Positions 1 to 13,435 of a stretch of 18,965 bases of DNA are shown in pieces. A program made the translations under genes and the position numbers. Origin of the DNA: a virus (lineage: Duplodnaviria > Heunggongvirae > Uroviricota > Caudoviricetes). Numbering within the stretch: the first letter of the stretch is position 1; every line of letters begins with the position of its first letter. The notes under the pieces are model-generated. The model saw only the letters and a list, made by a program, of their open reading frames with translations, was not told the DNA's origin and did no database searches. Where the stretch lies: IMG/VR virus record IMGVR_UViG_2537561689_000013, one strand, 5' to 3'.

Positions 1-870
<870 letters not shown>

Positions 871-928
871 TTGCTACTCTGTGAGAGGTAGTACCTTCTA
901 TCCAGTGCGGATTTAATTAATGGAATAA

Positions 929-2932
929 ATGATTATGAGTGAAAATGATACAACCCCAAAGAAGTCTACAAGCCAGGTTAACAAAGCGGTATTCTTTACA
1001 TCTGCTTTGCTAATTTTCCTTCTTGTCGCCTTTGCCGCCGTATTCCCGGATGTCGCCGACAAAAATTTTAAACTACTTCAGCAACAAATCTTCACGAATG
1101 CCAGCTGGTTCTACATACTTGCTGTGGCCCTGATTTTACTGAGCGTCACGTTCCTTGGACTCTCACGTTACGGTGATATAAAGCTGGGCCCAGACCATGC
1201 GCAGCCTGATTTCAGCTACCACTCCTGGTTCGCGATGCTTTTTTCGGCAGGGATGGGGATCGGCCTGATGTTCTTTGGCGTTGCCGAACCTGTGATGCAT
1301 TATCTTTCGCCACCTGTCGGCACTCCAGAGACCGTTGCGGCAGCGAAGGAAGCCATGCGCCTGACGTTCTTCCACTGGGGTCTGCACGCATGGGCAATTT
1401 ATGCCATCGTGGCGCTGATTCTGGCCTTTTTCAGTTACCGTCACGGTCTGCCTTTAACGCTGCGTTCTGCGCTCTATCCCATTATCGGCGATCGCATTTA
1501 CGGGCCTATAGGCCACGCGGTTGATATCTTCGCCGTGATAGGCACTGTCTTTGGCGTTGCAACATCGCTGGGTTACGGTGTATTGCAGGTGAATGCCGGT
1601 TTGAACCATCTTTTCGGCGTGCCCATCAATGAAACGGTACAGGTCATTTTGATCGTGGTCATCACGGGGTTAGCGACGATTTCGGTGGTGTCCGGCCTGG
1701 ACAAGGGAATACGCATCCTGTCTGAGCTTAATCTGGGCCTGGCGGTGTTGCTCCTGGCGCTGGTCTTGTGCCTGGGTCCCACTGTGCTTCTGCTGAAGTC
1801 ATTTGTGGAAAATACGGGTGGTTATCTGTCGGAACTGGTGAGTAAAACGTTCAACCTTTACGCGTATGAACCCAAGTCGAGCAACTGGCTGGGGGGCTGG
1901 ACATTATTATACTGGGGATGGTGGCTTTCATGGTCGCCGTTTGTAGGTATGTTCATTGCACGCGTTTCCCGCGGCAGGACAATTCGTGAGTTCGTGACTG
2001 GCGTGTTGTTTGTTCCCGCCGGCTTTACGCTCATGTGGATGACGGTGTTTGGAAACAGCGCCATCTATCTCATCATGAACCAGGGCGCCACTGACCTCGC
2101 CAATACCGTTCAGCAGGATGTTGCGCTTGCCCTGTTTAATTTCCTGGAGCATTTCCCGTTCTCTTCCGTGCTGTCATTCATTGCAATGGCGATGGTCATC
2201 GTCTTCTTTGTAACGTCTGCTGATTCGGGGGCAATGGTTGTGGATACTCTGGCATCAGGTGGGGTGGCAAACACGCCCGTCTGGCAGCGAATTTTCTGGG
2301 CATTGCTCATGGGCGTTGTTGCTATTGCCCTGCTGATCGCAGGGGGGCTGAGTGCGTTGCAAACCGTAACGATAGCGAGTGCATTGCCCTTCTCAGTTAT
2401 CTTATTAATATCCATATACGGACTGTTAAAAGCCCTGCGTCGGGATTTGACCAAGCGTGAAAGCCTTAGCATGGCGACTATTGCTCCTACGGCTGCACGT
2501 AACCCAATTCCCTGGCAGAGAAGGTTACGCAATATCGCGTATTTGCCGAAGCGCTCTCTTGTGAAACGTTTTATGGACGACATTATCCAACCCGCCATGA
2601 CGCTGGTTCAGGAGGAACTTAACAAGCAGGGAACGATAAGCCACATCAGTGACGCCGCCGAGGATCGTATTCGCCTTGAAGTCGATTTGGGCAACGAGCT
2701 GAATTATATATATGAAGTGAGGCTTCGCGGGTATAACTCACCGACCTTCGCGCTCGCTGCGCTGGATAATGATGAGCAGCAGAGTGAACAACATCGATAT
2801 TATCGCGCTGAAGTCTATCTCAAAGAGGGCGGCCAAAATTATGATGTAATGGGCTGGAATCAGGAACAGCTGATTAATGACATACTGGACCAGTACGAAA
2901 AACACCTGCACTTCCTGCATCTGGTTCGTTAA
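929..2932 (+). CDS. BCCT-family transporter, BetT-like (choline/glycine betaine/carnitine type) with long C-terminal cytoplasmic extension
   Basis: 667-aa ORF with about 12 predicted TM segments and the BCCT signature region GWTLLYWGWWLSWSPFVGMFIARVSRGRTIREF. Clearly related to, but not identical to, E. coli BetT as I recall it, so no gene symbol is given. Confidence 0.9.
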   Translation: MIMSENDTTPKKSTSQVNKAVFFTSALLIFLLVAFAAVFPDVADKNFKLLQQQIFTNASWFYILAVALILLSVTFLGLSRYGDIKLGPDHAQPDFSYHSWFAMLFSAGMGIGLMFFGVAEPVMHYLSPPVGTPETVAAAKEAMRLTFFHWGLHAWAIYAIVALILAFFSYRHGLPLTLRSALYPIIGDRIYGPIGHAVDIFAVIGTVFGVATSLGYGVLQVNAGLNHLFGVPINETVQVILIVVITGLATISVVSGLDKGIRILSELNLGLAVLLLALVLCLGPTVLLLKSFVENTGGYLSELVSKTFNLYAYEPKSSNWLGGWTLLYWGWWLSWSPFVGMFIARVSRGRTIREFVTGVLFVPAGFTLMWMTVFGNSAIYLIMNQGATDLANTVQQDVALALFNFLEHFPFSSVLSFIAMAMVIVFFVTSADSGAMVVDTLASGGVANTPVWQRIFWALLMGVVAIALLIAGGLSALQTVTIASALPFSVILLISIYGLLKALRRDLTKRESLSMATIAPTAARNPIPWQRRLRNIAYLPKRSLVKRFMDDIIQPAMTLVQEELNKQGTISHISDAAEDRIRLEVDLGNELNYIYEVRLRGYNSPTFALAALDNDEQQSEQHRYYRAEVYLKEGGQNYDVMGWNQEQLINDILDQYEKHLHFLHLVR

Positions 2933-2939
2933 CAGCAAC

Positions 2940-2968
2940 ATGCCGCCACAGAGGCGGCATTTATTTAT
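2940..2968 (+). terminator. Rho-independent terminator downstream of the BCCT gene
   Basis: Hairpin ATGCCGCC-acaga-GGCGGCAT followed by TTATTTAT, starting 8 nt after the stop codon. Confidence 0.6.
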
Positions 2969-2995
2969 CCCGGCTGCAATATGAGGGAATGCAGA

Positions 2996-4273
2996 ATGAT
3001 TTCACGCTGGAAATGGATGCTGAAGCAGACATTTAAAAAACTATGGTTCAGGGCAACGTTATTCGCAATTGTCGCAATAATAACGGCCCTTTTATCAATT
3101 CTTTTTAAATCAATGATACCTGAGTCGGTTTCCGTGAAGGTTGGTGCGGAAGCAGTCGATAACATTCTGAACATACTGGCATCGAGTATGCTGGCAGTGA
3201 CCACATTTTCGCTGAGCATCATGGTCACAGCCTACGGTTCAGCCACTACTAATGTGACTCCCAGAGCTACTCGTTTAGTTGTTGAAGACGTCACCACACA
3301 AAATGTACTGGCCACCTTCATCGGTTCTTTTCTCTTCAGTCTGGTAGGGATTATTGCCCTCAATATGGGAGCTTATGGAGAAAGGGGGAGAGTCATTTTA
3401 TTCATTGTAACACTGGTTGTCATTGCCTTAATCCTCATCACATTGCTTCGCTGGATACAGCATTTGACCTCTCTGGGGAGGGTTGGTGAGACAACGGCAA
3501 AAGTAGAACAGGCGGCCATCGAAACATTTATTGCGAGAGCAAGAAATCCCTGTCTCGGCGGATATCCATGGCTTGAGAACAATGAACAGCCGAAAGGAAC
3601 GGTTGCAGTTTATCCGAAAAAGATTGGCTATGTTGAATATGTTGATATGGTGAAACTCAGCAAGCTGCTGACCAATGATCCCCGTCATGTATACCTCGTG
3701 GCGCAGCCGGGCAGTTTCATACATCCGTCCACGCCAGTTTTGTACCTGAGTCAGGGCCAGGAGTCATCAATCAGCACCGATTTACTTGAGACGATTATTG
3801 TCTCGGATGTACGTTCATTTGCTCAGGACCCCCGATTTTGTCTTAGCGTCATGGCCGAAATAGCCTGCCGAGCCCTTTCCCCCGCAGTGAACGATCCTGG
3901 AACCGCCATTGATGTCATTGGCAGAGGTGTACGTATACTTTCCGCTTACGCGCAGAATAAATCTGATGAAATAGAAGTGAAATATCCTTCTGTACATGTT
4001 GCACCACTTCAGAATAACGATCTACTTGAAGACTTTTTCTCACCTGTTGCGCGCGATGGTGCCAGTATGAGGGAAATTCAGATAAGGGTCCTTAAAGGAC
4101 TGTCGATGCTGAGTAAGGGTTGGCCTGGAATTTTTGCTGAAGCCGCACAAACCCTAGCATTTGAAACATTAGAGCATGCTACTCGTGCTGACCATATAGA
4201 TTCTGACAGATATCTAATAAAATCAATTTATTATAATTTATTTAGTGGCGAAGATTCTAATAAAAAACCATAG
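2996..4273 (+). CDS. DUF2254-like membrane protein (4 N-terminal TM helices plus soluble C-terminal domain)
   Basis: ORF 2981..4273. The preferred start is ATG 2996, because GAGGGA at 2983-2988 is a good SD for it. Hydrophobic N-terminal third; the SPAVNDPGTAID motif resembles the conserved motif I recall for DUF2254 proteins. Family assignment is tentative. Confidence 0.7.
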   Translation: MISRWKWMLKQTFKKLWFRATLFAIVAIITALLSILFKSMIPESVSVKVGAEAVDNILNILASSMLAVTTFSLSIMVTAYGSATTNVTPRATRLVVEDVTTQNVLATFIGSFLFSLVGIIALNMGAYGERGRVILFIVTLVVIALILITLLRWIQHLTSLGRVGETTAKVEQAAIETFIARARNPCLGGYPWLENNEQPKGTVAVYPKKIGYVEYVDMVKLSKLLTNDPRHVYLVAQPGSFIHPSTPVLYLSQGQESSISTDLLETIIVSDVRSFAQDPRFCLSVMAEIACRALSPAVNDPGTAIDVIGRGVRILSAYAQNKSDEIEVKYPSVHVAPLQNNDLLEDFFSPVARDGASMREIQIRVLKGLSMLSKGWPGIFAEAAQTLAFETLEHATRADHIDSDRYLIKSIYYNLFSGEDSNKKP

Positions 4274-4555: not shown

Positions 4556-5251
4556 TTAATCACTTAAGGAATGAAGTGAGGCTCGTTGTGCAGAGGTTAA
4601 GCTAAGGAGGATTTTTTCTCGATACTCAGGTGCAAAGGAAAAGAAAACATCAGGAAAAATTCTTATGATAGTTGATATCATAGTCTTAACCACCTTATCA
4701 ATCACCTTCGAAATATTATCTATTTTAACCAAGTCTATTTCGGGAAAAACATTTAAAGCTTTTATGTGAGCCATTTCTTTTACAGTAGCTGTATGTACGT
4801 GACTGCATAACGAAGAGTATTCAGCTTTTAAAGTTTCATGTAGTAGAGGATTTTTTTTGAAGACAGGATGTTCCCCAGTTTGTTCAATTACCTTAAACAA
4901 TGATTTTTCTTCAAGTATTGAAGGATCTAGTAAGCAACCGATTGATTTTAAAGAATTTTCAATATAACTTCGCATCATTAGATTTGCTGGTTTGTATGCA
5001 CCATTTATAACCATAAACATAGCTGTACCAAGGTCAGATGAAGCTTCTTGCAATCGCTCCAATGAGTTGGCGTCTATTTTCTCCTTGGAGAAATGATACA
5101 AACAGTAAACAAGGCACATAAAAGAATAATATCTCTTATGTATCATGCTTATTTTCCCTCTTGAGTTAATATTCTCGAAAACATTTTTTAATTTATATTC
5201 AGAGAAATAAGTAACTAACTCAGTGAAATCGCTGTTTACTTCTCTCGACAT
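4556..5251 (-). CDS. Hypothetical protein (231 aa), third gene of the AT-rich operon; no recognisable family
   Basis: Long ORF in a region of about 30% GC; start lies 2 nt after the stop of the upstream gene. No catalytic motif recognised by eye. Confidence 0.65.
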   Translation of the reverse strand: MSREVNSDFTELVTYFSEYKLKNVFENINSRGKISMIHKRYYSFMCLVYCLYHFSKEKIDANSLERLQEASSDLGTAMFMVINGAYKPANLMMRSYIENSLKSIGCLLDPSILEEKSLFKVIEQTGEHPVFKKNPLLHETLKAEYSSLCSHVHTATVKEMAHIKALNVFPEIDLVKIDNISKVIDKVVKTMISTIIRIFPDVFFSFAPEYREKILLSLTSAQRASLHSLSD

Positions 5252-5253
5252 TG

Positions 5254-5760
5254 TTAGTCCTTATTGAATATATCTTTTATAACTTCATTCCAGTCATATA
5301 TCTCATTTTGAGCGCTAGAAAGGTTCTTCCTCTCTTTTATTCTACTCAAAACTAGAGGGTTATTTGACATTGAATTGATAATATTATAAGCCTTACCTAA
5401 ATCGGATGAGTTTTTCTCGTGAACGTCACACACGATTATGCCGATCATTTCCTCTCTAGATCTTTTTTCAGGCCTGCTGATTTCGATACCTAACATGCGT
5501 GCAAAATCATCTATATCTTTATTTTTTTGGAAGAGATCTTTGTCTAATAAAATCCTCGGAAGATACCCAACAAGGAAACCTTTAATATCATTTTTTTTGG
5601 ACTTTGAATTTCTTTCGTTAACTTCTAAATTATCAGTATAACTATCTTGAAGTAATTCAATAAAGTTGATTCTTGATAATTTTTTTGAAATAAAGGAAAA
5701 CTCCTCTAAAAAGTTTAACAGTTGCTTAATTTCTTTTGAGTTATTTTTTTTGTCAGTCAT
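5254..5760 (-). CDS. Hypothetical protein (168 aa), Lys/Asn-rich, second gene of the AT-rich operon; no recognisable family
   Basis: ORF whose ATG overlaps the stop of the upstream ParA-like gene (ATGA overlap at 5757-5760), implying translational coupling. Confidence 0.65.
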   Translation of the reverse strand: MTDKKNNSKEIKQLLNFLEEFSFISKKLSRINFIELLQDSYTDNLEVNERNSKSKKNDIKGFLVGYLPRILLDKDLFQKNKDIDDFARMLGIEISRPEKRSREEMIGIIVCDVHEKNSSDLGKAYNIINSMSNNPLVLSRIKERKNLSSAQNEIYDWNEVIKDIFNKD

Positions 5761-6587
5761 AAGTCACCTACTCTAGAGAGAAGTTCGTCAGTAATTTTAG
5801 ACAGCGAAAACTTCATATCCTCATCCGTTAAATTGTTAATAAATAAGCCTCTTGTTTGATTTCTTGCCAACTCAGTACGTTTGCTCAAATATGATTTAAA
5901 GATCTTATTACGCCAACGTTTTTGATTATTGAAGTAACGAAGACTTTCCTCATATAAATTACTATTACCTTCAACCATATTAAAAACTATGCCCGCACAT
6001 TCAATCTTAAGATCGAAATTTTCTCTCTTCTCATTTATAATGCTATCTAATAGATCGATACCAGTGATCGAAAGAGGATCGGGTTTGGCTGGAATGAGGT
6101 AATAATCAGATGCAATTAATGCGCTGGACATCCAAACTGATGGGGTTGGTGGGGTATCAATTATGACATAATCATAGTCATTTTCATGGATTTTAAGAAA
6201 GCGTCTAAGCTTGTTTTCTATCCCTTCTCCTGGTTTCATTTCAATTTTATATAGCCCAAGGCTTCCGGGAACAATGTGAAAATTATCATTTAATTGAATT
6301 GGTGTTATATCGGCTAATTCTTTAGGTGTGTTAACTAAAGGACCAGTCATTGTAGATAGTCGAATTTTTGAACTATAAAAAATATCACATATGCTATCGC
6401 CTCCGCTTTTCATATGTGCAACATATTTGCTTGTATCCATTACACATTGCGTTGCGTTAAATTGTGGGTCGATATCTATTAATAATATTTTTTGCCCAAG
6501 TTTATCTGAAAGATGATTAGCAATATTGGTAGCCAATGTTGACTTACCAACGCCACCTTTCATATTGATTAAGCTAATAACTTTCAA
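5757..6587 (-). CDS. ParA/MinD-superfamily P-loop ATPase (deviant Walker A), first gene of the AT-rich operon
   Basis: N-terminal MKVISLINMKGGVGKSTLATNIA (KGGxGKST deviant Walker A), DIDPQ motif, Walker B-like YVIIDTPP. No N-terminal HTH extension, so it resembles small type Ib ParA/MinD-like ATPases. Confidence 0.8.
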   Translation of the reverse strand: MKVISLINMKGGVGKSTLATNIANHLSDKLGQKILLIDIDPQFNATQCVMDTSKYVAHMKSGGDSICDIFYSSKIRLSTMTGPLVNTPKELADITPIQLNDNFHIVPGSLGLYKIEMKPGEGIENKLRRFLKIHENDYDYVIIDTPPTPSVWMSSALIASDYYLIPAKPDPLSITGIDLLDSIINEKRENFDLKIECAGIVFNMVEGNSNLYEESLRYFNNQKRWRNKIFKSYLSKRTELARNQTRGLFINNLTDEDMKFSLSKITDELLSRVGDL

Positions 6588-9261: not shown

Positions 9262-9633
9262 ATGCGTATAGAGTTTGTTTTGCCTTACCCGCCGACGGTG
9301 AACACCTACTGGCGTCGTCGTGGCAGCACATATTTTGTATCAAAAGCCGGTGAGCGTTATCGCCGGGATGTGGCACTTATTGTCCGCCAGCAGCGGCTGA
9401 AATTAAACCTGTCCGGAAGGCTGGCAATAAAAATTACTGCAGAGCCGCCGGATAAGCGCCGTCGGGACCTGGACAATATCCTGAAAGCACCGCTGGATGC
9501 ACTGACGCATGCGGGGCTTCTCATAGACGACGAGCAGTTTGATGAAATCAATATTGTGCGCGGTAAGCTCGTTCCTGGTGGTCGGCTGGGCGTGAAGATT
9601 TGCGAAATTAGAGGTGATAGTAATGGGGCGTGA
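9262..9633 (+). CDS. rusA: Crossover junction endodeoxyribonuclease RusA (Holliday junction resolvase)
   Basis: 123-aa protein with LPYPPTVNTYWRRRG and RRRDLDNILKAPLDAL motifs typical of RusA; AGAGG SD upstream. Confidence 0.85.
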   Translation: MRIEFVLPYPPTVNTYWRRRGSTYFVSKAGERYRRDVALIVRQQRLKLNLSGRLAIKITAEPPDKRRRDLDNILKAPLDALTHAGLLIDDEQFDEINIVRGKLVPGGRLGVKICEIRGDSNGA

Positions 9634-9976
9634 TATGTATGAGGTTTTAGACCGCTGGGGGGCATGGGCTGCAGCAGAAAATAGTGGTGTCGATTGGCAA
9701 CCGATAGCAGCGGGCTTCAAGGGGCTTTTACCTCATGGTAAAAAGTCACGGATTCAGTGTGATGATGACGAAGGCATTATGATAGACAGTTGTGTGGCTC
9801 GGTTGAGAAGGTATAAACCAGAGGAATATGAGCTCATCATAGCCCACTTTGTTATTGGTATCTCATTACGCACTATTGCCAAAAAGAGAAGGTGTTCAGA
9901 TGGCACGATTAGAAAGGAATTACAAACTGCAATTGGTTTTGTAGAGGGTATTACGAGCGTTATTGCATGTAAATAA
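9623..9976 (+). CDS. Q: Late-gene antitermination protein Q (933W/Stx-phage-type Q family)
   Basis: LDRWGAWAA...IAAGFKGLL...KSRIQCDDDEGIMIDSCVARLRR...CSDGTIRKELQTAIGFVEG resembles Stx-phage Q from memory. Start chosen at ATG 9623 (GAGGTGA SD) rather than the track's 9614. Confidence 0.75.
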   Translation: MGRDMYEVLDRWGAWAAAENSGVDWQPIAAGFKGLLPHGKKSRIQCDDDEGIMIDSCVARLRRYKPEEYELIIAHFVIGISLRTIAKKRRCSDGTIRKELQTAIGFVEGITSVIACK

Positions 9977-9981
9977 AAGCT

Positions 9982-10010
9982 AAAAGCCACCGTAGTGGCT
10001 TTTAGCATTT
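9982..10010. terminator. Hairpin with flanking A- and T-runs immediately after Q; candidate bidirectional terminator
   Basis: AAAAGCCAC-cgta-GTGGCTTTT, then AGCATTTT. Confidence 0.55.
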
Positions 10011-10182
10011 TAGGATTGTGCAGGTAATGTTTTGTTCAATTTAGTAAAGAAGTTAGATTGGCTTGTTACAGTACGTCGACTCTTTCCAGAAGTACTCAAC
10101 TGAAAGAAATCATTGATGCTTTTGGGTTGAGTTCTTTCATAGGCTTGCTTAAGTGACATGTGTTCCCCTTGTCTATTTGTTG

Positions 10183-11466
10183 CTATGACCGTGAAAAGTA
10201 GTGATGGTTCAGTTCTTTTGCAAAATAGTGCTTACGTTTAACCCAGATAAAACCATCAGCTTTAGAAATGATTGCAACATCTATGGGGCCTCCCACTGTT
10301 TCAGTATCATCGGAGACCTTGCGCTTGAAAGCGGTTAAATTTACTAATGATTCAGCCATATAAGCTAAATCTTGCTTGGGTAAAAACTCGATCATATTTA
10401 CGACTTTGTCAACATAGTTTTCTCGGACAAAGCTATCAATACGCCCCTTGCAATCGGAAACAGTTCTGCGCACTACATCAACTATAGCATCCTTGGCTCC
10501 TTCGATATCTGAAGTGGGCACCAAATCTGTGATTACTGAATCAATACCATCAAGTAAATCGCCGATAGAACGTTGATACTCAGCATGAAGATTTTGGATA
10601 AGATGTGAACTAGCTCCTTGCATGAAAGCAGAAACTTCATCCTCTTGCGCAAAGGGAGTCACGCCGCAATTAGGAGTGATGCAGCACTTGTCAGCATCTG
10701 TGGTTTTCCTTATTTTATCATTAAAGAAGCCACAAACTTCATATGATAATACTTTAGGGTAATAGTCTTTATCGCCATAACCTGCAATCACAATCCCAGA
10801 GACGGAACCAATATCACTTTGCTTGCATATCATAGCTGCCAATACATCACTAACTGCTTTTGTCAACTGTGGAGTTATGGATATTGAATCAAAGTCACTA
10901 AACTTTTGAGCAATGATGCGTTGGGTAATTGATGAAGCATAGGTTTGGGCTGCTTGTTCATCATCCGGAGTAAAACCATCAAAGTAATTAATATCAGATA
11001 ATTTTGTAAGGAGATCGTTGCAATAATTCGTGAGGTCTGTAACAAATTGATTCTTATCGAAGTTAACGAGATATGTTGGTTCGAGACCTTCAGAAAAAGC
11101 ATCAACAAGCATGCTGAATACAATCTCGCTCAGGAAGTGATAAAGATGAGCCTCACGCATACCTGGTGTGATGATTGATTTAGCTGACTGTAGATAATTG
11201 AAGAAATCCTCAGCATATTCCTCCAAAGAGTCAAAACATTTAGAGCCTAAATCCTTTCTATAAGCCTTAATGATAAGCTCCCATGGAGCTGTGCAGAGAT
11301 CACCAGTTCCATATACCATCAAACCTACAGGATGATGTTTAGTGAGAGCGAAAAGCTTTTCAGCGCCATTATAGATTTTATGTTTGCCGCCTCCAGAAAT
11401 CGTTACAGCTGAATCTGCGGCTAAAGCTACTGCGGTCTTGTTAAATACGGCTATTTCTGCTGTCAT
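10183..11466 (-). CDS. Moron protein (427 aa) with HslV/proteasome-beta-like (Ntn-hydrolase, peptidase T1-like) N-terminal domain and uncharacterised C-terminal domain
   Basis: Starts MTAEIAVFNKTAVALAADSAVT: Thr directly after Met, Asp at mature position 17, then GTGD and GYGD glycine-rich segments. Compared by eye with HslV/proteasome-beta sequences recalled from memory. Opposite strand to the late genes. Confidence 0.8.
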   Translation of the reverse strand: MTAEIAVFNKTAVALAADSAVTISGGGKHKIYNGAEKLFALTKHHPVGLMVYGTGDLCTAPWELIIKAYRKDLGSKCFDSLEEYAEDFFNYLQSAKSIITPGMREAHLYHFLSEIVFSMLVDAFSEGLEPTYLVNFDKNQFVTDLTNYCNDLLTKLSDINYFDGFTPDDEQAAQTYASSITQRIIAQKFSDFDSISITPQLTKAVSDVLAAMICKQSDIGSVSGIVIAGYGDKDYYPKVLSYEVCGFFNDKIRKTTDADKCCITPNCGVTPFAQEDEVSAFMQGASSHLIQNLHAEYQRSIGDLLDGIDSVITDLVPTSDIEGAKDAIVDVVRRTVSDCKGRIDSFVRENYVDKVVNMIEFLPKQDLAYMAESLVNLTAFKRKVSDDTETVGGPIDVAIISKADGFIWVKRKHYFAKELNHHYFSRS

Positions 11467-11574
11467 TTTTTACATAGGGTTTATATGTTGTGTAATGAGA
11501 AAAATACAAAAAAATTAACGCGTACGCAAAAATTCTTGTAATCTGTTAAGAGTGGTTACTTCGCCACACAGCTT

Positions 11575-11601
11575 AAACCCGCCGTCGAGCGGGTTTTTTT
11601 G
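11575..11601 (+). terminator. Rho-independent terminator on the plus strand inside the divergent intergenic region
   Basis: AAACCCGC-cgtcga-GCGGGTTT followed by TTTTT. Confidence 0.6.
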
Positions 11602-11698: not shown

Positions 11699-11917
11699 AT
11701 GTTAACCAGAAGGGAAAAAGACATGCTAAAACAGCAAGATATGACAGAAACGGCGAAAGTTGTTTTTAATGAATTAAGCATCGAACCGGCAACAGTCGGG
11801 GAGATTGCACAAAACACATACCTTTCACGCGAACGCTGTCAGTTAATACTGACCCAGTTGGTTATGGCGGGGCTGGCAGATTACCAGTTCGGCTGTTACA
11901 GACGTCTTCAGCAATGA
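11699..11917 (+). CDS. Hypothetical small protein (72 aa), possible DNA-binding/controller-like protein upstream of the methyltransferase
   Basis: ORF track only; weak SD; the true start may be an internal Met. No family recognised. Confidence 0.4.
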   Translation: MLTRREKDMLKQQDMTETAKVVFNELSIEPATVGEIAQNTYLSRERCQLILTQLVMAGLADYQFGCYRRLQQ

Positions 11918-12066: not shown

Positions 12067-13113
12067 ATGAAAAATACTGTAAAAATAAACAGTGTTGATT
12101 TAATCAACGCTGATTGCCTGCATTTTATTCAGTCCCTGCCTGATGATTCCATTGACCTGATTGTTACCGATCCGCCTTACTTCAAGGTGAAACCCAACGG
12201 TTGGGACAATCAGTGGAAAGGGGACGAAGATTACCTTAAGTGGCTGGACCACTGTCTGGCCCAGTTCTGGCGGGTGTTGAAACCTGCCGGAAGCCTTTAC
12301 CTGTTCTGTGGGCATCGCCTGGCATCTGATATCGAAATCATGATGCGTGAACGCTTTAATGTGCTGAACCACATTATCTGGGCGAAGCCGTCCGGACGCT
12401 GGAACGGATGCAACAAGGAAAGCCTGCGGGCGTATTTCCCGGCAACAGAGCGCATTCTGTTTGCTGAACATTATCAGGGGCCATACCAGCCCAAAAATGA
12501 CGGCTATGCGGCAAAGGGGCGCGAGCTTAAACAGTGCGTCATGGCCCCGCTGATTTCTTACTTTCGTGATGCGCGAGAATCTCTGGGAATAACATCAAAA
12601 CAGATAGCGGAAGCCACCGGAAAGAAAAACATGGCGTCACACTGGTTTGGTGCCAGTCAGTGGCAGTTGCCGAACGAGGCTGATTACAAAAAACTTCAGG
12701 CGCTGTTCGCGCGTGTTGCAGCAGAAAAACACCAGCGCGGGGAGCTGGAAAAGCCGCACCACCAGCTGGTCAGCACATACAGTGAACTGAACCGGCAATA
12801 TGCCAGCCTGCAGGAGGAGTATAAATCCCTGCGGCGTTATTTTTCCGTATCAGCTGCTGTTCCGTATACGGATGTCTGGACGCACAAGCCTGTGCAGTAT
12901 TATCCAGGCAAACATCCCTGTGAAAAACCGGCAGATATGTTGCGTCAGATAATTACTGCCAGCAGTCGCCCCGGTGATTTGGTCGCTGATTTTTTTATGG
13001 GGTCTGGCTCAACAATAAAAGCAGCACTTTCACTGGGACGTCGCGCAATTGGCGTGGAACTGGAAGAAGAGAGATTTAATCAGACTGTAACTGAAATAAA
13101 AAATAATCGTTAA
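12067..13113 (+). CDS. DNA methyltransferase, DPPY-motif class (N6-adenine or N4-cytosine), phage-type
   Basis: DLIVTDPPY (motif IV) near the N-terminus and DFFMGSGST (motif I) near the C-terminus, i.e. a beta-class amino-MTase arrangement. Comparable MTase genes sit downstream of Q in Stx-type lambdoid phages. Confidence 0.9.
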   Translation: MKNTVKINSVDLINADCLHFIQSLPDDSIDLIVTDPPYFKVKPNGWDNQWKGDEDYLKWLDHCLAQFWRVLKPAGSLYLFCGHRLASDIEIMMRERFNVLNHIIWAKPSGRWNGCNKESLRAYFPATERILFAEHYQGPYQPKNDGYAAKGRELKQCVMAPLISYFRDARESLGITSKQIAEATGKKNMASHWFGASQWQLPNEADYKKLQALFARVAAEKHQRGELEKPHHQLVSTYSELNRQYASLQEEYKSLRRYFSVSAAVPYTDVWTHKPVQYYPGKHPCEKPADMLRQIITASSRPGDLVADFFMGSGSTIKAALSLGRRAIGVELEEERFNQTVTEIKNNR

Positions 13114-13281: not shown

Positions 13282-13357
<76 letters not shown>

Positions 13358-13360
13358 TAT

Positions 13361-13435
<75 letters not shown>

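Follow-up and report, generated by a model that had tools for sequence, protein, structure and literature searches.

The IMG/VR viral record IMGVR_UViG_2537561689_000013 (Caudoviricetes; 18,965 nucleotides [nt], the whole of which is called the window here) raises the question of what a gene for a proteasome-like protein is doing in a lambdoid prophage, on the minus strand between gene Q and the late genes. The original prediction, made from the sequence alone, read its 427-amino-acid (aa) product as a proteasome/HslV-like N-terminal nucleophile (Ntn) hydrolase with a long C-terminal extension. AlphaFold2 modeling, Foldseek searches, and spliced profile alignment agree with a proteasome-family Ntn hydrolase carried as prophage cargo, but not with the affinity to HslV or with the extension. 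The large gene, a small gene downstream of it, and a terminator are a self-contained two-gene operon, and this cassette is horizontally mobile cargo of temperate phages and satellites.

The large gene and its proteasome-like product

The large gene has the length and N-terminus first described for it (open reading frame [ORF] 10183..11466, minus strand; 427 aa; N-terminus MTAEIAVFNKTAVALAADSAVT), and the identical coding sequence in the RefSeq record of Escherichia coli strain 120899 is hypothetical protein WP_000123148.1. Its PHROGs match is phrog_5990, a function-unknown family, and nothing else; the full-length protein matches no Pfam family (including PF00227, at E values up to 10) and no NCBIfam family. 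The AlphaFold2 model, computed from a 47-sequence alignment, reaches a mean pLDDT of 84.3 and a pTM of 0.80, and its top 50 Foldseek matches in the PDB are all 20S proteasome subunits, with alignments covering the full query; the best match among the viral models of BFVD is a phage "proteasome beta" protein. The model has the alpha-beta-beta-alpha Ntn sandwich with strands S1 to S10 and helices H1 to H4 in proteasome order, as in the T1 family sensu Fuchs et al. 2021, and by this predicted fold the large protein is a genuine proteasome-family Ntn hydrolase homologue. Below the top 20S matches, the structure comparison ranks Anbu (14.5), proteasome alpha (14.1), BPH (11.5), connectase and HslV (10.8), and acid ceramidase, penicillin V acylase, and similar Ntn hydrolases (~9 to 10.5). 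HslV is not the closest structural relative in this comparison, and the modeled protein is closer to proteasome beta and Anbu than to HslV.

The Ntn fold is built from three separated parts of the large protein (residues 1 to 97, 216 to 286, and 361 to 427), and two helical insertions lie between them, as follows.

10183..11466, minus strand: large gene, coding for a 427-aa proteasome-family Ntn (Thr1) hydrolase homologue with two helical insertions
11176..11466, minus strand: core segment 1 (residues 1 to 97), with S1 to S4 and H1 and H2 (residues 4 to 94)
10822..11175, minus strand: helical insertion 1 (residues ~98 to 215), at the H2/S5 "pore loop" site
10609..10821, minus strand: core segment 2 (residues 216 to 286), with S5 to S8 and H3
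10387..10608, minus strand: helical insertion 2 (residues ~287 to 360), a long helical hairpin between H3 and H4
10186..10386, minus strand: core segment 3 (residues 361 to 427), with H4 (364 to 384), S9 and S10 (395 to 411), and a basic KRKHYF tail

In core segment 1, S3 (38 to 40) and S4 (47 to 54) are adjacent and are followed by H1 (62 to 73) and H2 (81 to 94); core segment 2 has strands at 223 to 229, 238 to 248, 251 to 256, and 268 to 271 and a helix at 275 to 283. The modeled helices of insertion 1 span residues 101 to 126, 130 to 134, 138 to 156, 167 to 188, and 199 to 214, and those of insertion 2 span residues 287 to 315 and 318 to 360. The C-terminal ~180 residues had been taken for an extension of unrecognized kind, but residues 361 to 427 supply the last helix and strand pair, and the extra mass of the protein is that of the two internal insertions.

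At the level of sequence the relationship is distant. Searched against the PDB, the family profile gives an insignificant E value of 1.4, though in the correct register, and full-length hhalign with the Thermoplasma acidophilum beta subunit (a reference sequence identical to PDB 3c91_H at 203 of 203 residues) matches the C-terminal 20 columns and no more. The insert-spliced family profile aligns with the same subunit from end to end (180 columns; P, 4.7e-5), and among 10 insert-spliced cores compared with Pfam, PF00227 is the top match for two, in the correct register, at 16.8 and 12.1 bits. Even with the inserts spliced out, the PF00227 gathering cutoff of 22.4 bits is not reached (best, 16.8), and the protein is therefore a remote homologue by sequence, beyond the reach of Pfam. 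The final strand pair, S9-S10, has the sequence TVGGPIDVAIISKADGFIWV, and this block (residues 390 to 409) aligns with residues 168 to 187 of T. acidophilum beta, ASGGMIDVAVITRKDGYVQL, by both HMMER and hhalign (P, 3e-5).

The catalytic residues are aligned in the spliced core by hhalign, where T2, D18, and K37 correspond to Thr1, Glu17 (Asp17 in most proteasomes), and Lys33 of T. acidophilum beta, with GAEKLF around K37 facing NGKKLF. The spacing first noticed, with a Thr after the initiator Met and an Asp 16 residues on, proves to be a family trait: conservation was computed on 125 homologues from more than 15 phyla of bacteria and archaea, and the positions conserved in at least 95% of these are M1, T2, A3, E4, N9, D18, S19, K30, K37, G48, W62, E63, K67, and R70 in core segment 1 and G224, V226, G229, G231, P237, A273, and Q274 in core segment 2. 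The start codon is followed directly by Thr in 92 of 92 loci examined, and the matches of nearly all the 150 best representatives of the family begin at profile position 1, from which we conclude that there is no propeptide; database proteins with longer predicted N-termini retain an internal M-T. Methionine aminopeptidase tolerates Thr at the second position, and removal of the initiator Met by this enzyme would expose Thr1 and is predicted to leave the large protein catalytically active. Residues 23 to 34, with the invariant K30 among them, are the one stretch modeled with low confidence (pLDDT < 50) and possibly form a mobile loop near the active site.

The VIAGYGD sequence, part of which (IAGYGD) had been equated with the conserved Gly-Ser-Gly loop, instead aligns with LLVGGID of proteasome strand S5 in the spliced hhalign. 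The position of the Gly-Ser-Gly loop is occupied by F272-A273-Q274, of which A273-Q274 is invariant, although the register of the loop is uncertain. Candidates for the oxyanion Gly47 are G48 (at least 95% conserved) and G53 (86%), which flank S4, and the alignment has a gap at Gly47.

The large protein thus resembles 20S beta subunits (MEROPS T1, PF00227) in its Thr1, Asp/Glu17, and Lys33 equivalents, its S5 motif (G/A)G(Y/I)D, and its C-terminal motif GGxIDVAxIxKDG, but differs in having ~190 extra residues in the two insertions, no propeptide, and no alpha-subunit or ATPase partner. With HslV it shares the Thr directly after the initiator Met and the status of a bacterial proteasome-family protease, but HslV is ~175 aa long, is insertion free, and works with the AAA+ protein HslU, none of which applies to the window protein.

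The core and the insertions evolve at different rates. Mean column identity in the 125-homologue alignment is 81 to 84% over residues 1 to 20 and 361 to 420, and residues 361 to 427 are the most conserved block of the family (~81 to 83%); over the insertions it is 0.26 to 0.36 (insertion 1) and 0.24 to 0.36 (insertion 2). The insertion columns are almost gap free, so that insertion length is conserved. The conserved basic tail at the C-terminus, W.KRKHYF...LN, persists across bacteria and archaea while the inserts and the small partner diverge freely. Comparisons of the window gene with the Enterobacter homologue and with its closest relative (98% identical overall) give the following values.

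Enterobacter homologue, core: 96% identity; pN/pS 0.04
Enterobacter homologue, insertion 1: 71% identity; pN/pS 0.21
Enterobacter homologue, insertion 2: 80% identity; pN/pS 0.17
Closest relative, core: 100% identity; pN/pS 0.00
Closest relative, insertion 1: 94% identity; pN/pS 0.62

Nonsynonymous change is ~4 to 5 times faster in the inserts than in the core, and faster-evolving inserts on a conserved catalytic core would fit a specificity module.

The small gene and the two-gene operon

The original description of the large protein as a stand-alone enzyme is not borne out. There is no HslU-like partner, in that no gene for an HslU-like AAA+ unfoldase is present in the window and no large neighbor is conserved in 90 related loci, but a conserved small partner ORF follows the large gene. 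The features of the operon beyond the large gene are these.

11480..11509, minus strand: candidate promoter, TTGTAT-18 nt-TATAAA, read by eye, agreeing with the consensus at 8 of 12 positions
10164..10170, minus strand: Shine-Dalgarno-like AAGGGGA, whose 3' end precedes the small-gene ATG by 4 nt
10010..10159, minus strand: small partner gene, 49 aa, MSLKQAYERTQPKSINDFFQLSTSGKSRRTVTSQSNFFTKLNKTLPAQS, not annotated in RefSeq
9979..10006, minus strand: intrinsic terminator with a 12-bp stem, 6 G-C pairs, and a T-run, 4 nt after the small-gene stop

The terminator ends the two-gene operon, and relatives have equivalent hairpins, as well as equivalents of the ribosome-binding site (GGGGGAG, GAGGAGAAAGG, or AAGGAGA). 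A promoter scan at a threshold of 9 of 12 reported nothing at 11480..11509, and this site is a weak candidate for the cassette promoter. The terminator hairpin also lies only 3 nt past the stop of the convergent Q gene (9614-9976) and may be a bidirectional terminator serving both the cassette and Q.

An equivalent small ORF is found in Alteromonas, Klebsiella, and Vibrio loci, and closer relatives (Enterobacter, Cronobacter, and Pectobacterium) share the pattern MSLKQAYERTQPKS[IV]NDFF...NFFT.L, each with a ribosome-binding site and a terminator. A downstream small ORF is present in 72 of 76 diverse genome loci, compared with 31 in an antisense control and ~23 expected from shuffling, and in essentially all viral loci, where the apparent exceptions have a 34-aa version. 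Annotated equivalents occur in Javan103 (55 aa) and Providencia phage PSTRCR_117lys (58 aa). The small proteins vary widely (34 to 80 aa), are charged and fast evolving, and their genes frequently have a stop/start overlap with the large gene. Between the window and Enterobacter, synonymous sites of the small gene are saturated and pN is 0.13, giving a pN/pS of ~0.17, which indicates purifying selection.

A hidden Markov model (HMM) of the partner was built from non-gammaproteobacterial copies and searched against 11,855 ORFs from all loci; it matches essentially only ORFs in the downstream position, including those of held-out loci (1e-14 and 8e-6). Its consensus has a basic tail, F-R-S-I-E-E-F-E-R-E-Y-F-P-K, and an amphipathic helix, and a short motif near the N-terminus of the small proteins, an aromatic...F-x-P-[KR] element, recurs across clades. 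The small protein has no Pfam family, and one variant only has a PHROG, of unknown function. In a Clostridium metagenome-assembled genome (locus L024, 9283-9483), the variant has a subthreshold match to a UPF0150-like Pfam family of the HicB-antitoxin type (E value, 0.019; 15.3 bits), which is absent from the other nine small-protein variants tested. For Latescibacterota, a naturally fused large-small protein was considered and rejected: the small-protein HMM match falls inside insertion 1 (~101 to 138) rather than at the C-terminus and reflects generic helix similarity. The products of the two genes are predicted to interact physically.

Family, distribution, and phage positions

The large protein had been considered an oddity, but its family is large and spans both bacteria and archaea, with ~6,000 clusters at 50% identity. 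Among 1.84 billion proteins there are 6,025 representatives at this identity level with E values up to 1e-3 and 3,336 with E values up to 1e-30, with members of ~420 to 450 aa. They occur in Gammaproteobacteria, Firmicutes, Actinobacteria, Bacteroidota, Planctomycetota, Verrucomicrobiota, Cyanobacteria, Chloroflexota, Nitrospirota, and others, as well as in the archaea Methanosaeta and ANME-1; the matches from these phyla are full length and 32 to 45% identical to the window protein. The majority of the family is encoded on bacterial and archaeal chromosomes, outside any phage context.

Fuchs, Alva, and Lupas (2021; PMC8665760) described 22 new groups of proteasome homologues, distinct from 20S, HslV, Anbu, BPH, and connectase, including PMI-3 and PMI-4 ("Proteasome homolog with Multiple Insertions"), which have insertions after H1/H2 and between H3/H4. 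PMI-4 is spread over Proteobacteria, Firmicutes, Actinobacteria, Bacteroidetes, PVC, Cyanobacteria, other bacteria, Euryarchaeota, and phages (PMC8665760). The window family is probably PMI-4 (or PMI-3), an assignment made from the published architecture and distribution of these clusters, whose representatives are HDY66466.1 (for PMI-4) and OGZ26396.1. It shares with these groups a proteasome-like core, long insertions at the same two sites, and the lack of a propeptide, and with PMI-4 the phyletic spread, phages included. The authors leave the function of the PMI groups blank and report their genomic context as uninformative (PMC8665760), whereas the window family has a conserved small ORF as its partner and occupies defined slots in prophages and satellites. 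Insertions at the pore-loop and H3/H4 sites were argued to hinder assembly of rings, double rings, and a closed barrel (PMC8665760), and by analogy ring assembly of the window protein is doubtful.

In the RefSeq record of E. coli strain 120899, the large gene is surrounded by a DLP12-like lambdoid prophage that is a degraded remnant. Its order is hokD, a DUF968 gene, rusA, Q, the large gene (on the opposite strand), a small ORF, a DNA methyltransferase gene, tRNA-Thr, tRNA-Gly, holins, endolysin, iss, nohD, and terminase, and the large gene is thus antisense, between Q and the late/lysis region, as first read. It lies in a low-GC island (GC, 0.38 to 0.41, versus ~0.52 on both flanks), and is present in 9 of 5,426 complete E. 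coli genomes; a DNA comparison with 50,697 phage records gave no close match to it. The sequence from ~11500 onward directly adjoins Q in other lambdoid phages, and so the cassette appears to have been inserted between Q and the stretch usually found next to it (possibly the late promoter with its terminator). Between the cassette and a 72-aa ORF (11699-11917) is a strong intrinsic terminator on the plus strand (11575-11596; AAACCCGCCGTCGAGCGGGTTT and then a T-run).

A survey of homologues and their neighborhoods revealed the small partner, phage and satellite slots, and no other conserved neighbor. A Pfam and PADLOC census of 148 immediate neighbors gave no recurrent further partner, and clustering of 1,166 flanking ORFs from the 90 loci gave no conserved third gene; the functional unit is therefore the two-gene cassette. 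The commonest neighbors in these loci are rve-type transposases or integrases (7), tyrosine integrases (7), phage Q (7, all enterobacterial), type I restriction-modification HsdM/S (6), FtsK (4), and P2/P4-type GPA replication proteins (3). The PADLOC matches to "mad2" were discarded as a sign of the MADS system; they are DNA methyltransferases, and the window's own methyltransferase matches mad2 too.

A relative is present on 155 IMG/VR contigs, which de-duplicate to 53 viral loci. The cassette converges on Q, with holins on the other side, in 17 of the 53 (the window and 16 others), and homologues with 86% and 66% identity occupy the same Q-holin slot in the company of differing lysis and terminase modules. 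In 13 to 14 of the 53 it lies 108 to 272 nt downstream of a CI-type repressor gene and is co-directional with it, with a cro-like gene divergent; we take this slot to be the position of rexAB in lambda. In a Klebsiella Rac-like prophage the cassette comes right after cI. It is cargo of a P4-like island in Alteromonas and has a type I restriction-modification neighbor in Vibrio. Sequenced phage records with the cassette number 13 of the 50,697; as judged by names and gene content, all are temperate phages or satellites, and none is an obviously virulent phage. Seven belong to Streptococcus satellite phages, in which the pair follows terS and a regulator at the accessory end, and two to Streptococcus prophages, in which it lies at the genome end. 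Plasmid carriage is rare (10 of 72,556).

These positions (downstream of and co-directional with cI, the Q-lysis moron slot, and satellite accessory ends) resemble those of lambda rexAB and other prophage exclusion cassettes expressed in lysogens, and of the defence cargo in accessory regions of phage-inducible chromosomal islands (PICI) and P4. The cassette is also like rexAB-type cassettes in having two genes, low GC, and a patchy distribution, but has no sequence or fold relation to RexA or RexB or to any PADLOC system.

Other features of these loci deserve mention. Between the cassette and the holins, the window has a type II N6/N4 DNA methyltransferase gene (12067-13113, plus strand; PADLOC MTase_II, 2.5e-151), which is followed by tRNA-Thr(TGT) and tRNA-Gly(TCC) (13282-13435, plus strand); a DNA adenine methylase gene also adjoins the homologous cassette in the Providencia phage. 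A second low-GC island (4556-6587, minus strand; GC, 0.29 to 0.35), between the DUF2254 gene and hokD, has three co-oriented genes, coding for a ParA-family protein (276 aa) and hypothetical proteins of 168 and 231 aa; its sole PADLOC match is a weak P-loop match to PDC-M28B (3.8e-5), and this island may be a further cassette of foreign cargo. Positions 1-4273, on the left of the window, are nonphage, with genes for a BCCT transporter (929-2932) and the DUF2254 protein (2981-4273); in the RefSeq record an IS100 lies just upstream of it, and an IS66-family element disrupts the terminase gene. In two Pectobacterium prophages (L101 and L102, 7301-13287), the cassette lies in the tail-gene region with a 53-aa partner ORF and is directly followed by a giant ORF of >2,500 aa with MuF_C and LPD domains, of the polyvalent-protein type.

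Function of the cassette

A toxin, defence, or anti-defence role of the large gene, as raised by the original prediction, is plausible. In a more specific form, the cassette would be a putative lysogen-expressed, protease-based phage-exclusion or abortive-infection module, possibly also an addiction module, and we infer this with about an even chance of being correct. In such a module, removal of the initiator Met would expose Thr1, and the Asp17 and Lys33 equivalents would complete the triad, making the conserved catalytic core the effector. The insertions, at the pore-loop site, which lines the substrate channel in proteasomes, and at the ring-ring interface, would be incompatible with a closed proteasome-like barrel (PMC8665760), so that control would be by specificity and not by compartmentalization. 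The small protein would be a dedicated partner, most likely a cognate regulator, pseudo-substrate, or substrate, and the variable insertions together with it would set specificity or restrain the protease until infection. In lysogens the cassette would serve the prophage by blocking superinfecting phages or by acting as an addiction module. A wider claim, that the family is an unrecognized two-gene immune (or immune/addiction) module of bacteria, archaea, and temperate phages, with a stand-alone Thr1 effector whose specificity or triggering is set by its inserts and its co-translated partner, is possible but falls short of probable.

Several observations weigh against phage exclusion. A literature search gave no paper linking this family, or any Ntn or proteasome homologue, to phage defence, and none that mentions WP_000123148 or phrog_5990; the full-length protein matches no defence HMM of PADLOC-DB v2.0.0 at E values up to 10. 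The neighborhoods outside Enterobacterales and phages are heterogeneous and include metabolic and regulatory genes, restriction-modification or recombinase genes occur in only ~6 to 7 of the 90 loci each, and the methyltransferase signal among neighbors comes partly from related prophages. In Providencia phage PSTRCR_117lys the cassette shares its strand with the late genes, and so the antisense orientation is not essential. The inserts are under net purifying selection (pN/pS < 1), which hence gives no proof of diversifying selection. Ser129, Asp166, and Ser169, the support residues of the proteasome "pentad" (PMC11947121), have no evidently conserved equivalents (A273/Q274, and V391 at Ser169; the loop register is uncertain), and the chemistry may therefore differ from that of the classical proteasome. 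Lastly, the window's small protein is undetected by the HMM from other phyla, and the gammaproteobacterial copies and the others are linked weakly by hhalign (P, 0.006; a shared L.eW..kF.P element); what argues for the small gene in the window's clade is therefore its position, the structure of the operon, and continuity by way of intermediates.

Best placed among the alternatives, though unlikely in itself, is a dedicated processing or ligation activity outside defence, in which the Thr1 enzyme cleaves, matures, or transpeptidates the small protein at its aromatic...F-x-P-[KR] element and the processed peptide is the product. By analogy, the enzyme would act as connectase does on a specific recognition motif or as a peptide-maturation protease. 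The strict pairing with the small ORF and with no other conserved gene, the motif recurring near the N-terminus of small proteins across clades, and the many environmental-genome loci without obvious phage or defence context speak for this reading. Connectase (the archaeal MJ0548/MM family) is, like the window protein, an ATPase-independent proteasome homologue and is a precedent for sequence-specific action on one partner. We know of no co-operonic small partner of connectase. The connectase signature itself is missing, as connectase lacks H1/H2 and has a helical insertion between S3 and S4, whereas the window protein has H1/H2 and carries its insertions elsewhere (PMC8665760). Small proteins so variable in sequence and in length (34 to 80 aa) would be unusual as the product of a conserved activity, and the patchy spread on mobile elements and the lysogeny slots suit conflict systems better than physiological maturation.

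Unlikely too, and next in standing, is a toxin-antitoxin-like addiction module, in which a protease toxin and a small labile antitoxin stabilize the carrier prophage, satellite, or island with no direct antiphage role. Two genes, often overlapping, of which the second is small, and a patchy presence on prophages, satellites, integrative islands, and some plasmids are in keeping with it, as is the single weak HicB/UPF0150-like match; but that match is below threshold and concerns 1 of 10 variants, no known toxin-antitoxin family is matched, and plasmids seldom carry the cassette. This explanation also overlaps phage exclusion, since many prophage toxin-antitoxin modules prove to act in defence.

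An offensive or counter-defence protease that cleaves host or host-immune proteins during lytic growth is improbable. Carriage by phages in the Q-lysis region, and the co-orientation with late genes in the Providencia phage, would agree with lytic expression, but the cassette, which has a terminator of its own, runs convergently toward Q in the window and in 16 other viral loci, and the co-directionality with CI in 13 to 14 viral loci makes expression in the lysogen probable. None of the 13 sequenced phage records is obviously virulent, and the family is mostly chromosomal and outside phages.

A catalytically dead scaffold of proteasome fold, acting by binding only in the manner of proteasome alpha subunits, is very improbable. 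It would account for the unconserved equivalents of Ser129, Asp166, and Ser169 and for the unreached Pfam Proteasome threshold, but a Thr after the start in all loci and D18 and K37 at at least 95% conservation are the signature of an active Ntn nucleophile, and inactive alpha-type subunits bear N-terminal extensions instead. The literal earlier reading, of a ~175-aa HslV-type domain fused to an unrelated ~180-aa C-terminal domain, takes up the N-terminal resemblance to HslV and the proteasome but deserves next to no credence, given that the Ntn fold draws on all three core segments, the C-terminal block aligns with proteasome beta 168 to 187, and no HslU-like ATPase gene is nearby in the window or the 90 related loci.

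The family itself was probably already catalogued in 2021; what is new is the conserved small gene that accompanies it, along with the defined positions of the pair as cargo of phages and satellites. A large group whose function is blank (~6,000 clusters) thereby acquires three handles, namely an obligatory, mostly unannotated partner, cargo positions suggestive of a conflict function in lysogens, and a core with faster-evolving inserts, and an orphan family becomes a two-gene system directly testable in E. coli. A processing or ligation enzyme would be of possible biotechnological interest, as connectase is. If the cassette instead acts in defence or addiction, it would bring a proteasome-family enzyme into antiviral defence for the first time and give the PMI group its first function, and its threonine N-terminal nucleophile would be a new enzymatic class in prokaryotic immunity.

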